In this document: positions 33,546 to 38,854 of the stretch, one piece after another
Layout: each line of letters opens with the position of its first letter
How positions within the stretch are numbered: position 1 is the stretch's first letter
From: Clostridia bacterium
Lineage (GTDB): Bacteria; Bacillota; Clostridia; TANB77; CAG-508
DNA length: 61,303 bases
NCBI GenBank assembly: GCA_022791395.1
Contig: JAAVZA010000025.1
Coordinates: forward strand, 1-61,303
Reading direction: 5' to 3'
Notes under the pieces: generated by a model
The model's database searches: none
What the model saw: the letters and a program-made list of their open reading frames with translations, nothing else
What the model was told of the DNA's origin: nothing
Position numbers and translations under genes: made by a program

Positions 33546-33566
33546 GTTTCATTTTGTGCAATGTAA
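33546..33566 (+). repeat. attL direct repeat GTTTCATTTTGTGCAATGTAA
   Basis: Identical to 38834-38854. At this copy TTTTGTGCAA (33552-61) forms a 10-bp hairpin with TTGCACAAAA (33536-45). Confidence 0.85.
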
Positions 33567-33649
33567 CATTATATTTATAAAGGATACTTAATACCCTATC
33601 GTTTAATATGACTTATTATAAACATATAACTTTTAAATTGTCAATACTT

Positions 33650-33871
33650 TTATGAAACTTTTTTTCTAGAATAATAGATAATTCTTTTTTTATGTTGATG
33701 TTCAAGTCTACAATTTTTAGATACATCATAACCAACTCTATAAGAATTAGTTCCCTTTTTAGATAAAATATAATCATATGTATGATACAATAAACAATTC
33801 CTTAAATCTTCTAAATCAGAGTCTTTATCAATTGCATATACCTTATGAAAATTAAAAGCATACAATTCCAA
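33650..33871 (-). CDS. hypothetical prophage protein (start uncertain)
   Basis: Track ORF with a TTG start. The frame stays open upstream to ~33950, where a GGAGGGG RBS sits but no canonical start codon follows it. Confidence 0.4.
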   Translation of the reverse strand: MELYAFNFHKVYAIDKDSDLEDLRNCLLYHTYDYILSKKGTNSYRVGYDVSKNCRLEHQHKKRIIYYSRKKVS

Positions 33872-34080
33872 AGCTTCAAGAATTATATCAACTTGCCCCT
33901 CTAAAAGTCGTAAGTCTATATGATTAATTGTGTCAGTATTAAAAATAACTATCCCCTCCTATCTTATTCTAAAATATATTATACATTATTTATGTAAACA
34001 AGTCAATTTATTGTTTTCGACAAGAAATGACAACAAATTACAAAATATATATGATAAAATAAATATTAGGAGGTGGTAAA

Positions 34081-34566
34081 ATGTTATATATAGCATTAGT
34101 ATTAATAATAATAGCACTTGTTTTAAATCAAATAATAACTAAAAAAACTGATACAATTATATTAAAGCCTAATAATGTAACAAATTACTCAAAAAAAGAT
34201 TATATAATGACACAAACGGAATTAAAATTCTATAGGGAATTAAAAACTATAACAGACAAATTACAATTAACAATATTTCCACAAGTAAAACTAGATGCAA
34301 TTGTAAATACAAAAAGTAACAAAAATACAGCAAGAAACAGAATAAAATCAAAAAGTATTGATTTTGCAATAGTAAATAATGTAAATTGTAAAATCGTATG
34401 TTGTATTGAATTAGATGACTACACTCATAATTACAAAAGAAGAATTGAAAGAGATAATTTTGTAAATGAATTATTTTCATATATTGGAATAAAACTACAT
34501 AGAATTAAAGTAAGTAACACATATAATTCAATAGAATTAGAAAATATGATAAAAGAGAGCTTATAG
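34081..34566 (+). CDS. TM-anchored DUF2726-like (nuclease-fold) protein
   Basis: GGAGG RBS and an N-terminal TM. 'E..FY..L.......IFPQV.L..I' and 'SIDFAIV......CCIELDD.TH' resemble DUF2726. It is the only + strand gene in the element. Confidence 0.55.
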   Translation: MLYIALVLIIIALVLNQIITKKTDTIILKPNNVTNYSKKDYIMTQTELKFYRELKTITDKLQLTIFPQVKLDAIVNTKSNKNTARNRIKSKSIDFAIVNNVNCKIVCCIELDDYTHNYKRRIERDNFVNELFSYIGIKLHRIKVSNTYNSIELENMIKESL

Positions 34567-34737
34567 CTCTCTTTCCTTTTTACAATAGTGATAAAAACAT
34601 TTCCAATTCTCACACTTATCGCATTCATATTTACATTTTCTAGCACATTCTTTAGAAATTCTATTAGTAATAAAAATATCATAAATACACATTAAAATAG
34701 AACCAAAAATCAAAATCAAAAAGTAATTAAAACCCAT
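34561..34737 (-). CDS. 58-aa TM + Cys-rich mini-protein
   Basis: Below the ORF-track cutoff. AGGTGA RBS. Sequence MGFNYFLILIFGSILMCIYDIF...ECARKCKYECDKCENWKCFYHYCKK. Confidence 0.4.
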   Translation of the reverse strand: MGFNYFLILIFGSILMCIYDIFITNRISKECARKCKYECDKCENWKCFYHYCKKEREL

Positions 34738-34741
34738 ATTA

Positions 34742-34852
34742 TCACCTATCCTTCAAATATTGTAAAAAATCTTTATATAATTCACAACTTTCACATTTAT
34801 TATCACAATAAATATATGTTTGATAATGTAATGGACAAATTGTATACCCCAT
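34742..34852 (-). CDS. 36-aa Cys-rich mini-protein
   Basis: MGYTICPLHYQTYIYCDNKCESCELYKDFLQYLKDR. Its stop overlaps the RBS/ATG region of the next mini-ORF. Weak RBS. Confidence 0.3.
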   Translation of the reverse strand: MGYTICPLHYQTYIYCDNKCESCELYKDFLQYLKDR

Positions 34853-34887
34853 TTCTTCTGCTAACTCATCTTTCCAACTAATAAAAA

Positions 34888-35614
34888 TCAAATCCTTTCT
34901 AAATTATATTGTTTATATGTACAATTACCTAAAATTTCTGTATCGTAATTTGACACATAAACGGGTTTTAAACCGATTTAAATTATATTTAGATATAACT
35001 TTTCTTTCATTTTTGTTAAAATCTTTTAAATCGTGATTTACAATTTCATTAGGCTTTATTAAATTACGACTTGTTAAATAAGCCTTTTGCCCCATTAATC
35101 GTTTATCATTGTTATCTTTTGTAATATACTTAAGTATATATGCACCTATATTATCAACGTGTTCAATAGCATTAATAAATACAAATCCATTGCCCCATAA
35201 TTCCTGCAATTCATTTTGTGGTACATATGGAATAGTTAATAATACGTGATAATGTAATGCACCTCTTTTTTGAAACTCTATAACAGCAAGATACTTAAGC
35301 TTATCATTATACTTATTTTTTAATTTTCTAATAAAAGCCTTAAATAACAAATTGCACTCTTGAATATTTGTTTTATTCTCTGCAAATGTTAATGTTAAAA
35401 ATTTGTCATATTTATTATTAAAATTACAACAAGCTAATCTCCTAATCATATCACGTCGTCGTTGATTAGTATTACTATAATTCTTTAATTTACTTTCAAT
35501 TTCTCCCTCTCCCTTTTTTACACCAGTAAAACCACCTTTTCCACTTATATAATACTTATACTCATAAACTTCGACAATATGACCAGTTACAATATATTTT
35601 TTTAAACCAGACAT
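34888..35614 (-). CDS. rolling-circle replication initiator (HUH Rep); C-terminus reached by +1 shift at CGG 34975-34973
   Basis: Motif I 'FLTLTF', motif II 'ALHYHVLL', motif III 'GAYILKYITKD'. The zero-frame tail 'RFKTRLCVKLRYRNFR*' looks out of frame. The +1 tail 'GLKPVYVSNYDTEILGNCTYKQYNLERI*' ends at 34888. Confidence 0.8.
34973..34975 (-). other. zero-frame CGG / +1 frame-break site (phage Rep)
   Basis: Sense strand 'tta aat CGG ttt aaa...'. Skipping the C gives GGT TTA AAA CCC GTT TAT and 28 further codons. Confidence 0.65.
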
Positions 35615-35669
35615 ATAGCAAAATCCTTTCTTAATGTTCTAATATTCAACTATAATTAAATTAAATATA

Positions 35670-35756
35670 GAAAAACTTCGTTTTTCTTCACTCAAGCGCC
35701 GTTAGGCTGTTAATTAGGGGGGCTGTCCCCCTTCTTCCCTTCAGTCAGCCCCCGCA
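35670..35756 (-). promoter_or_regulatory. GC-rich compound hairpin region (candidate ssDNA origin/packaging signal)
   Basis: GAAAAAC-TTC-GTTTTTC at 35670-86. AGGGGG-GCTGT-CCCCCT at 35716-32, nested inside GGCTG/CAGCC (35705-09 / 35746-50). This is the only GC-rich non-coding block in the element, and it lies between the Zot-like and Rep genes. Confidence 0.5.
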
Positions 35757-37709: not shown

Positions 37710-38040
37710 CTAAAACACCACCTTTACGAACTATACTAGTTACTATGTTAAATAAAAATAAACCAAATATTACAAAAGTAAGAATAATCGTACAAATATT
37801 ATTAAAATCACGTCTATAACAAACATTATTTGTTGTTTTAACTTCAGTTAATGTAGAATATTCTGTATTATTCAAAACTTCTAAATTATAAACAAAGCAA
37901 TTGTCATATAAGGGAATTCTATAATATAAATACACTTCCCCATTTTCTAAATTTTGCTCATTGAATAAATCAATTGAATTATCACTAAAACGAGCGAACT
38001 TATATTCTTCTGGAATATTTCCAGTATATAAAGTATCCAT
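37696..38040 (-). CDS. 114-aa protein with C-terminal TM (minor coat candidate)
   Basis: AGGGGG RBS. C-terminal 'ICTIILTFVIFGLFLFNIVTSIV' helix. It overlaps the next gene by 14 nt. Confidence 0.5.
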   Translation of the reverse strand: MDTLYTGNIPEEYKFARFSDNSIDLFNEQNLENGEVYLYYRIPLYDNCFVYNLEVLNNTEYSTLTEVKTTNNVCYRRDFNNICTIILTFVIFGLFLFNIVTSIVRKGGVLGGLL

Positions 38041-38050
38041 ACAATACCCC

Positions 38051-38161
38051 CTATTGTTTAAAATAATAATTTCTTATAGCATCTAAAACCATACGTAGAA
38101 ATACGCAAACTGGCAAAAGCTTTACAAATTCACACAAAATATCAATTACAATATCATACAT
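38051..38161 (-). CDS. 36-aa hydrophobic protein (pVII/pIX-like position)
   Basis: GGAGG RBS 8 nt before the ATG at 38161. Sequence MYDIVIDILCEFVKLLPVCVFLRMVLDAIRNYYFKQ. Confidence 0.4.
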   Translation of the reverse strand: MYDIVIDILCEFVKLLPVCVFLRMVLDAIRNYYFKQ

Positions 38162-38183
38162 AAAATACCTCCATATAATAAAA

Positions 38184-38200
38184 AAGGGGCATTAAGCCCC
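38184..38200 (-). terminator. terminator immediately after the coat gene
   Basis: - strand GGGGC-TTAAT-GCCCC followed by TTTTTT. Confidence 0.6.
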
Positions 38201-38205
38201 AATTA

Positions 38206-38373
38206 TTAAATTCCACCTTTAGCTCTTTTTATTTTATTAAGAACTCTCTTAACTAAATAAAAACCTAAACCGAATAATACAGAAATTATTACGAAAGGCA
38301 TAATAGTTGCAACTTCACCCCATAAAACAGAAGCAGAAAGACCTGAAGATAATGCAGTAACAACATTTTCCAT
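38206..38373 (-). CDS. major coat protein (pVIII-like), 55 aa
   Basis: MENVVTALSSGLSASVLWGEVATIMPFVIISVLFGLGFYLVKRVLNKIKRAKGGI has an acidic/neutral N-terminus, a 20-aa hydrophobic core and a basic C-terminus. GGGGG RBS. Confidence 0.7.
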   Translation of the reverse strand: MENVVTALSSGLSASVLWGEVATIMPFVIISVLFGLGFYLVKRVLNKIKRAKGGI

Positions 38374-38436
38374 AATAAAACCCCCTTTTTACATTAAAAT
38401 TTTTATAATTTAAAAAGAAATTATAAACAAATAAAT

Positions 38437-38691
38437 CTAACAAGGAACAACATCCTTGCAAATCAAAACTTGCTTTTTATCTTTAGAACTATACCAAGTT
38501 TCAAAAATAACAGTTAATGGATCATCTTTTTTAAAGAGTTGTAGATTTTCAAATATTTTATTATTAAATAATAAAATATTTACATCCCTGTTATCTCCAC
38601 CTTGTTTACAAGTTAAAAAAACATAGTCCTTACCAGTATCAGTCTTCTTAATTTCGTGATTTTGATAAGTGCCAATAAACTCAACTTTCAT
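38437..38691 (-). CDS. 84-aa ssDNA-binding-like protein (pV position)
   Basis: It is the first gene after attR, has a GAGGTGAG RBS, and its size and position match pV. No motif certainty. Confidence 0.45.
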   Translation of the reverse strand: MKVEFIGTYQNHEIKKTDTGKDYVFLTCKQGGDNRDVNILLFNNKIFENLQLFKKDDPLTVIFETWYSSKDKKQVLICKDVVPC

Positions 38692-38833
38692 AATCTCACC
38701 TCACTTATTAAATAAAAAAATAAGCCGTATTAAACGACTTATAAATATAAATAGATTACGCAAAACTGCTTAAAGTGTAAACTTGCATAATTGTTGAAAT
38801 GTAAGGAAATATTACAAAATCTTTCGCAAATTG

Positions 38834-38854
38834 GTTTCATTTTGTGCAATGTAA
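38834..38854 (+). repeat. attR direct repeat GTTTCATTTTGTGCAATGTAA
   Basis: Identical to 33546-33566. Its last 4 nt start the long palindrome at 38851-38924. Confidence 0.85.

Follow-up and report, generated by a model that had tools for sequence, protein, structure and literature searches.

A small inovirus prophage at a dif-like site beside rho in a gut Clostridia chromosome, with a frameshifted pIII-like gene

The stretch of DNA considered here (the window) is a 61,303-nucleotide contig of a Clostridia bacterium (NCBI GenBank assembly GCA_022791395.1, contig JAAVZA010000025.1). Between positions 33,546 and 38,854 it holds an element that is best explained, with a probability of about 0.78 for the explanation as a whole, as the single-copy integrated genome of a small filamentous single-stranded DNA (ssDNA) phage in the chromosome of a low-GC gut Clostridia species. 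The gene for its pIII-like tip protein is frameshifted, and the attachment (att) sites at its ends point to integration by a host Xer-family recombinase at a dif-like site. Its ends, core genes and nearest chromosomal neighbour are listed here; related contigs and loci carry L numbers.

33535-33562, no strand: attL, a complete dif-like site, TTTGCACAAAA-GTTTCA-TTTTGTGCAAT, with a chromosomal left arm
33546-33566, plus strand: left copy of the 21-bp repeat, made up of the 6-bp centre, right arm and TGTAA
34925-35614, minus strand: HUH Rep, a rolling-circle initiator with motifs FLTLTF, HYHVLL and YILKY (PF23343 REP_ORF2-G2P, 81 bits; PHROG 3419, E 1.9e-29)
35796-36497, minus strand: Zot/pI-like assembly ATPase of 233 amino acids, with Walker A GKQGDGKT, Walker B IILFDE and an N-terminal membrane helix
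36510-36809, minus strand: p99, a conserved polytopic membrane protein that adjoins Zot in all relatives
36806-37709, minus strand: pIII-like gene, frameshifted, delimited by tblastn with the intact 301-residue protein of relative L026
37029-37053, minus strand: interval containing the 1-nt indel, …TTG CCA TAT TTT CGG CAA TAA
37696-38040, minus strand: p114, acidic, with a C-terminal membrane helix; kept in relatives and a candidate minor coat or assembly protein
38051-38161, minus strand: p36, small and hydrophobic, a candidate for the pVII/pIX position; L043 has a 36-residue gene at the equivalent place
38186-38200, minus strand: intrinsic terminator-like GC hairpin and T-run directly 3' of the coat gene
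38206-38373, minus strand: candidate major coat protein of 55 residues, with a hydrophobic core at residues 23-41 and six Lys/Arg among the last 14
38437-38691, minus strand: p84, a predicted OB-fold ssDNA-binding protein (pV analogue), from an AlphaFold 2 model (pLDDT 90.5) and Foldseek
38823-38850, no strand: attR, a phage-derived degenerate left arm, TTCGCAAATTG, followed by the central region and right arm
38834-38854, plus strand: right copy of the 21-bp repeat, an exact match
38934-40292, minus strand: rho, as context (NCBIfam rho, 657 bits), with its stop codon 79 bp from the right repeat

Several of these genes can be assigned from profiles or predicted structure, in scans that covered 14 open reading frames (ORFs) or fragments of the element. 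The Zot-like ATPase scores 23.3 bits against a Pfam PF05707 cut-off of 20.3, matches PHROG 197 ("Zot-like", E 9.4e-11) and is 28-33% identical by tblastn to the annotated Zot proteins of five GenBank Inoviridae. Rep is 68% identical in amino acid sequence to Rep of bajarodino virus 41. The AlphaFold model of p84 displays an OB barrel of five strands, with a helix inserted between the third and the fourth, and its top Foldseek matches are bacterial and mitochondrial SSB, PriB and Rim1 (TM scores of 0.6-0.7); Pfam, PHROG and PDB sequence searches found no p84 relatives outside this phage group. The modeled fold fits a pV-like ssDNA-binding protein. Assignment of the 55-residue coat protein is based on composition, size and position. 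Domains of an integrase or recombinase, a secretin or a repressor were absent from the ORFs and fragments scanned. Sub-threshold SPP1_Dit and SelK matches among the small phage ORFs were treated as noise.

Much of this gene content had been proposed in a preliminary description made from the sequence without database searches. The HUH Rep with its three motifs, the 84-residue protein in the pV position (now with a confidently predicted OB fold like those of SSB and PriB), the small hydrophobic ORFs (p36 and p114), the polytopic 99-residue protein, the P-loop ATPase of Zot/pI type, and the lack of an integrase, a secretin and a recognizable repressor all stand, as does the 55-residue coat with hydrophobic core, basic tail and its own terminator, which agrees with the composition and with the hairpin at 38200-38186. 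Placement of the listed genes on one strand is accurate, all of them lying on the minus strand, but the list omits the plus-strand DUF2726 gene as well as p73, p49 and p58. Profile searches, suggested there as a check, put Zot and Rep above threshold and returned no match for the coat. The proposed inovirus identity is borne out by the Zot and Rep profiles, the p84 fold, GenBank phage relatives that are exclusively Inoviridae, and a circular relative that closes at the repeat; that the element is a genuine inovirus prophage is very highly probable.

Family knowledge suggests how such a set of proteins would work together. Rep would nick the double-stranded form to start rolling-circle replication, and p84 would coat the resulting single strands. 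The 55-residue coat protein, p36, p114, p99 and the pIII-like tip protein would wait in the membrane, where the membrane-anchored Zot-like ATPase would extrude the filament through the single membrane, making a secretin unnecessary.

The boundaries of the element are set by a 21-bp direct repeat, GTTTCATTTTGTGCAATGTAA, which is present in exactly two copies in the window, with a spacing that gives an element size of 5,288 bp. None of 100 shuffles produced any match of this kind, and the perfect bracketing repeat of the preliminary description is thereby upheld. The same prophage is found at 100% identity in contigs from other samples (L035, 9,020 bp, and L036, 5,711 bp), both of which span both junctions; L037 is a partial contig with attR only. 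Because identical contigs cross both junctions in independent samples, the repeats are not an assembly artefact. A circular relative provides the complementary view. Metagenome contig L026, from Logan, is 4,877 bp long with a 30-nt terminal overlap, closes to a circle of 4,847 bp, and is 78-80% identical in DNA sequence to the window element. Its positions 1-146 align to window positions 33691-33547 and its positions 118-171 to window positions 38864-38810, so that both prophage ends map to one and the same att site of the circle.

The pIII-like gene is split between two reading frames. In tblastn, the intact 301-residue protein of L026 aligns to the window with residues 4-221 in the frame of a 226-residue ORF (67% identity) and residues 226-301 in the next frame (61% identity), the latter including the C-terminal hydrophobic segment. 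The N-terminal 226 codons, which encode a signal-like helix, occupy 37029-37709 on the minus strand, and the last 76 codons, with the C-terminal hydrophobic anchor, occupy 36806-37036 in the other frame. One extra T in the T-run of the indel interval would explain the shift, and the length would then equal that of L026. No stop interrupts the C-terminal frame before the one that overlaps the p99 ATG. The other relatives examined have one uninterrupted pIII-like ORF of 273-414 residues that ends at or overlaps the p99 start, and the remaining phage genes of the window are equal in length to those of intact relatives. An identical frameshift site is found in L035-L038, from four other samples (L038 has seven mismatches elsewhere), and L034 has the same sequence up to the pIII stop, directly after which an N-gap begins. 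Sequencing error was rejected as the cause, since the site recurs in assemblies from five other samples. A separate start for the C-terminal fragment was also rejected, there being no ATG, GTG or TTG ORF in that place.

In the Ff phages, termination of assembly and release of the filament require the C-terminal domain of pIII. By this analogy, a copy in which the C-terminal membrane anchor is cut off likely cannot finish normal filaments, and the window copy is most likely unable to complete or release normal infectious particles unless the shift is bypassed. Most likely the gene was inactivated recently by this mutation, in a prophage passed on vertically and probably crippled as a result. 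The pIII-like protein of the preliminary description is accordingly present as the ORF at 37029-37709 but truncated by the frameshift. "Complete-looking" was an overstatement for this lineage, and so was "active or recently active", in light of both the frameshift and the fact that all contigs found for the exact window phage are the integrated form.

An alternative, which appears unlikely, is that the prophage is fully functional and makes full-length pIII-like protein by +1 ribosomal frameshifting at UAU-UUU-CGG. With the ribosome paused at CGG, a codon avoided by the host, tRNA-Phe would slip from UUU onto UUC, and a low efficiency would suffice because tip proteins are present in only a few copies per filament. 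Arginine codons in the 41 host ORFs of the window (12,711 codons) are AGA 316, CGT 50, AGG 33, CGA 14, CGC 5 and CGG 0, and CGG may be an unassigned or almost unassigned codon in this organism (25% GC). A shift of +1 would be required, and UUU in the P site followed by C would allow exact re-pairing. The 76 open codons of the C-terminal frame, their overlap with the p99 start codon and their lack of a start codon also fit such a mechanism, as does occurrence of the frameshifted form in at least five samples, including a diverged, circularly permuted variant. However, all more distant relatives encode the pIII-like protein in one frame, CGG arises simply from a single T insertion into TAT-TTC-GGC, and the samples may share one bacterial strain that has inherited the dead gene.

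The circularly permuted variant, L034, is an ENA scaffold of 3,986 bp with ends 8 nt apart within rep. It is without the attP region (~60 bp) and without the p49-p58-DUF2726-p73 module, and it may represent a minimal version of about 4.0 kb that does not integrate.

The repeat itself is part of a larger site. Positions 33536-33561 form a perfectly palindromic 10-6-10 arrangement, TTGCACAAAA-GTTTCA-TTTTGTGCAA, of which the left repeat is the right-hand two-thirds, or centre plus one arm. Judged by its sequence, such a 10-6-10 layout is how tyrosine-recombinase core sites are built. The attR left arm matches the dif arm at 6 of 11 positions, and the centre is identical in attL and attR (6/6). 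The attP of relatives has the same degenerate arm, as CGCAAATTG in L026 and L043 and as CGCAAATCA in L039, indicating that the arm belongs to the phage and appears conserved. Integrated relatives likewise have the same centre at both prophage ends, CTTTGA in L029/L030, L040/L045 and L041 as compared with GTTTCA in the window, and CTTTGA is also the centre of attP in relatives. The order of dif-like site, inovirus, and degenerate arm plus centre plus arm recurs in L029/L030, L041, L077 and L164, whose Zot is 56% identical. No inverted second att copy was found within one mismatch of the arm, leaving one site per genome equivalent.

This attP layout is of the TLCφ type, in which the right arm and centre are identical to dif and the left arm is degenerate; the TLCφ and VGJφ layouts are as defined in PMC4246890. 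The element does not have the two inverted sites folding in ssDNA of a CTXφ-type attP, nor the partial centre homology of the VGJφ type, since its centre is identical at all six positions. It does share several features with integrative mobile elements exploiting Xer (IMEX): no element-encoded recombinase, an attP like dif, and a prophage flanked by dif-like sites.

These features suggest an attP that mimics host dif, with the same 6-bp centre, one identical arm and one degenerate arm. Mimicry of a dif-like site at the terminus would explain how the phage integrates without an integrase of its own. At the replication terminus, a host Xer-family recombinase would have joined the phage circle, in its double-stranded form, to dif. 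The left end (attL) would then be an intact dif and the right end (attR) a degenerate site, so that dimer resolution would be preserved and excision would remain possible. Host Xer recombination at a dif-like terminus site is the most likely route of integration. The earlier placement of the insertion just downstream of rho is correct, but the dif-like nature of the repeat had been missed.

The location of the site is also typical of a replication terminus, as judged from the convergence of skew and gene strand. GC skew flips from positive to negative at the dif-like site, and gene orientation changes from the plus strand (~2-32 kb) to the minus strand (~34-54 kb). The dif site of Escherichia coli is GGTGCGCATAA-TGTATA-TTATGTTAAAT, and the window site is similar in layout and in parts of the arms, a likeness that is a resemblance only. 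The exact 26-mer is present as a single copy in each of 24 other species-representative genomes, all of them gut Clostridia metagenome-assembled genomes (MAGs), and skew is positive to its left and negative to its right in 24/24. Rho lies to the right in most of these genomes; in several, a gap of no more than ~50-100 bp with no insert separates it from the site, identifying empty sites in those species. The right flank of the empty site in L019 is visibly similar to the window attR flank. In L012 the site is inverted relative to rho and the skew switch is still present.

Allowing any 6-bp centre, the palindrome is found in >120 genomes among the matches listed, including cultured Anaerococcus and Dysosmobacter. 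Among those matches, the skew switch was counted for low-GC loci (GC ≤35%) with at least 800 nt on both sides; it is present at 65/73 of them, as against 5/27 higher-GC loci. Each low-GC locus has one copy of the site. The palindrome was set aside as a dif candidate in Bacteroidota and in genomes above 35% GC, given the 5/27 figure and two Bacteroidota MAGs that carry it twice, in which it is probably a mere hairpin. In the Anaerococcus species (L060, L061, L068, L074, L075, L078 and L082) the arms are the same and the centre is TAATAA or TAACAA; these sites are mostly at a skew switch with an Xer-like gene nearby, and the organisms are cultivable. The genome-wide dif table of Kono et al. 2011 (PMC3025954) does not contain the window motif and records failed predictions for some clostridia, and a literature search returned no paper that uses the motif as dif. 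No tRNA or tmRNA gene serves as the attachment site, and Rfam identified only RNase P in the window, with nothing near the site.

A candidate enzyme for integration and excision is encoded in the chromosome close to the site.

28087-29061, minus strand: Xer-family tyrosine recombinase of 324 amino acids (Pfam Phage_integrase, 146 bits), 4.5 kb left of the site

Its NCBIfam scores are 239 bits for XerC, 220 for XerD and 209 for XerA, and its best PDB sequence matches are XerA and XerD; a XerH structure is a weak match. Against the XerS model it scores 165 bits, below a cut-off of 267, and at 324 residues it is shorter than the approximately 355 expected, so that by sequence it does not appear to belong to the XerS or XerH family. 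Among the matches listed, homologues of the recombinase are encoded within the ≤8-kb locus around the site in 56 fetched loci. Such linkage between recombinase and site is a possible hallmark of single-recombinase Xer systems (PMC5357621). L019 encodes two adjacent Xer-like paralogues (1575-3524), ~40% identical to the window recombinase and 1.2-3.2 kb from the site, and the number of Xer proteins acting on the site may differ between lineages.

A less favored view, which seems improbable, is that the site is not dif but another conserved sequence 3' of rho, such as a regulatory or terminator hairpin, that serves as attB, with integration carried out by the phage Rep, as an HUH endonuclease, or by an unrecognized small phage protein. 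The site is indeed a hairpin-forming intergenic palindrome near rho in many species, phage ORFs p73, p49 and p58 have no assigned function, and the palindrome occurs with other centres in Bacteroidota MAGs without a skew switch, twice in two of them. The 10-6-10 layout of a tyrosine-recombinase core site, the linkage of the site to Xer genes, and the repeat boundaries, which coincide with centre plus arm, argue for dif instead. So do the skew switch at 65/73 low-GC loci, L012 with its site inverted relative to rho included, and the relatives with an unrelated Rep family that share the same attP.

Exchange of the replication gene is seen in the comparison with L026, the source of the closest Zot homologue (94% identical) and a genome with the same gene order, including DUF2726. 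At 3282-3902 L026 encodes a Rep of the Rep_OBD/RepB_C type, whereas the window has the REP_ORF2-G2P-type Rep with p49 and p58. The structural genes and the attP arm are constant despite this swap, which indicates that integration specificity does not follow Rep. In total, 520 Zot homologues were found at E ≤0.001, most of them on contigs whose longest length is 4.0-5.0 kb, a size that, from the sequences, looks like the signature of a small free replicon. A search with the Zot protein alone in genome and viral contigs gave no confirmed relative. The only relatives among GenBank phages are the bajarodino viruses, uncultivated circular Inoviridae of 4.5-5.4 kb from rodent faeces. An integrated rolling-circle plasmid, the refuting case named in the preliminary description, is very improbable: Rep alone is 40-48% identical to Reps of 1.5-8.5-kb plasmids of Bacillus, Geobacillus and Clostridium, but the ATPase passes the Zot profile and stands in inovirus order with an OB-fold protein, a coat-like protein with its terminator and a pIII-like protein, this structural module is constant when Rep is exchanged, and the closest annotated genomes are Inoviridae.

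Several observations weigh against the proposed picture of a crippled inovirus prophage integrated by Xer recombination. For this exact phage and host, neither a circular junction (attP) nor an empty site (attB), the two forms suggested earlier as checks, was found among the contigs and 21-mer scans; the scans gave one unrelated chance match in JGI metagenomes and none in IMG/VR. The coat, p36, p114, pIII-like and p99 proteins have no Pfam or PHROG matches, and their roles are assigned from size, hydrophobicity and position. The recombinase falls below the NCBIfam equivalog cut-offs for XerC, XerD and XerA. Finally, the frameshifted lineage includes L034, which is 97.6% identical and circularly permuted, and this variant hints that frameshifted genomes still replicate.

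The remaining features of the element lie mostly in its left part.

33615-33644, minus strand: promoter-like site TTGACA-18-TATAAT (12/12 consensus), reading toward attL and out of the prophage
33650-33871, minus strand: p73, a small basic protein, with the frame open upstream to ~33949 and homologous ORFs in relatives
34081-34566, plus strand: DUF2726 protein (Pfam PF10881, 89.5 bits), the only listed element gene on the opposite strand
34551-34575, no strand: bidirectional terminator-like hairpin between DUF2726 and p58
34561-34737, minus strand: p58, Cys-rich (7 Cys) with one hydrophobic helix; the gene is also called in independent contigs
34742-34891, minus strand: p49, a small acidic ORF with 4 Cys
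38720-38742, minus strand: hairpin and T-run in the attR-p84 intergenic region, a candidate terminator, or an origin or packaging hairpin

The DUF2726 protein is, on structural prediction, a membrane-anchored phage cargo protein with a nuclease fold. Its AlphaFold 2 model (pLDDT 89.9) places a membrane helix at the N-terminus, ahead of a restriction-endonuclease-like fold, with weak Foldseek matches to BstEII, TnsA, a homing endonuclease and VRR_NUC; residues D94, E110, D112, D113 and H116 are invariant. The gene is present in most close relatives, including L026, and in some dif-adjacent remnants without a phage. A PDB sequence search was empty, and PADLOC matched neither DUF2726 nor the small ORFs. 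It is speculation that the protein acts in superinfection exclusion or processes recombination intermediates. The small proteins p49, p58 and p73 have no meaningful Pfam or PHROG match, and p73 matched no family in PADLOC or other profile scans. The promoter-like site at 33644-33615, a match to the σ70-like consensus, would, in the circular form, read across attP toward the p84-coat operon, and integration may uncouple the two.

The DNA around the dif-like site has features of its own. To the left, an ORF-free region of ~750 bp (32790-33545) is conserved at the DNA level in many species (67-88% over 400-800 bp), with Rho proteins in those species no more than 70-87% identical. A promoter-like motif, GAATCAATTTTAAG…TATAGTTTGTTGT, is repeated within it, at ~33200-33248 and ~33392-33440, and the ~95 nt after the second motif end in a hairpin and T-run just before the dif-like site. 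The sequence of this hairpin varies across species with its pairing kept by eye, and it has no Rfam match. The region may be a small RNA gene or accessory DNA for Xer or the terminus. A lone 10-bp arm, TTTTGTGCAA, is found at 32863-32872, 690 bp left of the dif-like site, and eight other loci (L004, L008, L009, L011, L012, L018, L019 and L025) have a similar lone arm 300-1,000 bp to the left of their site, a frequency far above chance by an estimate of ~0.03 expected per 8-kb locus. To the right, between attR and the rho stop, a 29-nt inverted repeat (38849-38926; 93% complementary, 20-nt loop), whose left arm begins within the right direct repeat, is probably the rho terminator. The RNase P RNA, of class A, is at 16061-16417 on the plus strand (262 bits).

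Other genomes contain DNA inserted near the site. Islands of 0.04-2.7 kb separate the dif-like site from rho in L004, L005, L009, L010, L017, L020 and L025. Those beside the site in L004, L005 and L010 are 0.7-2.7 kb long, several with only a DUF2726 gene, and an extra centre plus arm lies 33-43 bp from the site in L009 and L025. Some islands are bounded by a second copy of centre plus arm. These leftovers look like scars of earlier Xer-mediated integrations.

A bolder synthesis can be offered only tentatively, with rather less than an even chance of being right in all its parts. The palindrome TTGCACAAAA-N6-TTTTGTGCAA would be the true dif, not described before, of Anaerococcus and of a large low-GC clade of gut Clostridia, served by an often adjacent Xer and possibly by a single recombinase. 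The 4-5-kb gut inoviruses, a very abundant family, would be the first IMEX described in monoderms, and the frameshifted tip-protein gene of the window phage would perhaps be expressed by +1 frameshifting at CGG.

Comparison with known systems places the element most likely as an IMEX-type filamentous phage of a monoderm gut anaerobe with an unusual palindromic dif-like site. TLCφ, VGJφ and CTXφ of Vibrio cholerae and XacF1 and Cf1c of Xanthomonas, which are IMEX that act via host XerCD, likewise have no integrase and an attP that mimics dif, and their prophages are flanked by one functional dif and one hybrid site, to which attL and attR of the window element would correspond. TLCφ shares the same attP layout, in which one double-stranded site combines a degenerate arm with a centre identical to dif (PMC4246890), whereas CTXφ folds two inverted sites in ssDNA and the window element is without a second inverted site. 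In contrast to those proteobacterial elements, the window element resides in a monoderm, low-GC Clostridia host. Its site has perfectly palindromic 10-bp arms, unrelated in sequence to E. coli, Vibrio or Bacillus dif, a lone Xer encoded near the site may take the place of XerCD, and its genome is smaller (5.3 kb, and ~4-5 kb in relatives). No XafT-like activator was recognized in the window element.

Filamentous phages of Gram-positive gut anaerobes are barely characterized, and here a whole family of them, very abundant but uncharacterized, is tied to low-GC Clostridia hosts. Propionibacterium phage B5, CAK1 of Clostridium beijerinckii and the Enterocloster/Hungatella prophages (PMC10061712) are also small phages of monoderm hosts, with no secretin, a pI/Zot homologue and prophages with flanking direct repeats. 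The Enterocloster prophages are larger (6.5-8.5 kb, and one of 16 kb), none of these phages gave a sequence match in the GenBank phage search, and PMC10061712 makes no mention of Xer or dif. The bajarodino viruses (GenBank PQ006130-PQ006174) are also circular, 4.5-5.4 kb long, and have the same gene types. The Rep gene of bajarodino virus 41 is 73.5% identical at the DNA level and bajarodino Zot proteins are 28-33% identical, but the structural module is only distantly related, and virus 41 has no dif-like attP within three mismatches.

Capture of host Xer/dif is described in the searchable literature only for proteobacterial and related phages. XerS/difSL and XerH/difH (PMC5357621) offer a parallel for the window recombinase, in that the recombinase gene is likewise linked to its dif site, but the XerC, XerD and XerA scores of the window protein are well above its XerS score. 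A precedent for the wider argument is LME-1 of Legionella, a mobile element with a dif mimic that revealed an unrecognized single-recombinase terminus system, XerL/dif, which was proven genetically (PMC9765430). LME-1 differs in phylum, element type and site sequence, and the window case is computational throughout. The window phage likewise leads to a candidate dif/Xer system, and with it come testable handles on the chromosome biology of poorly studied gut bacteria and a tiny, integrase-free integration module.

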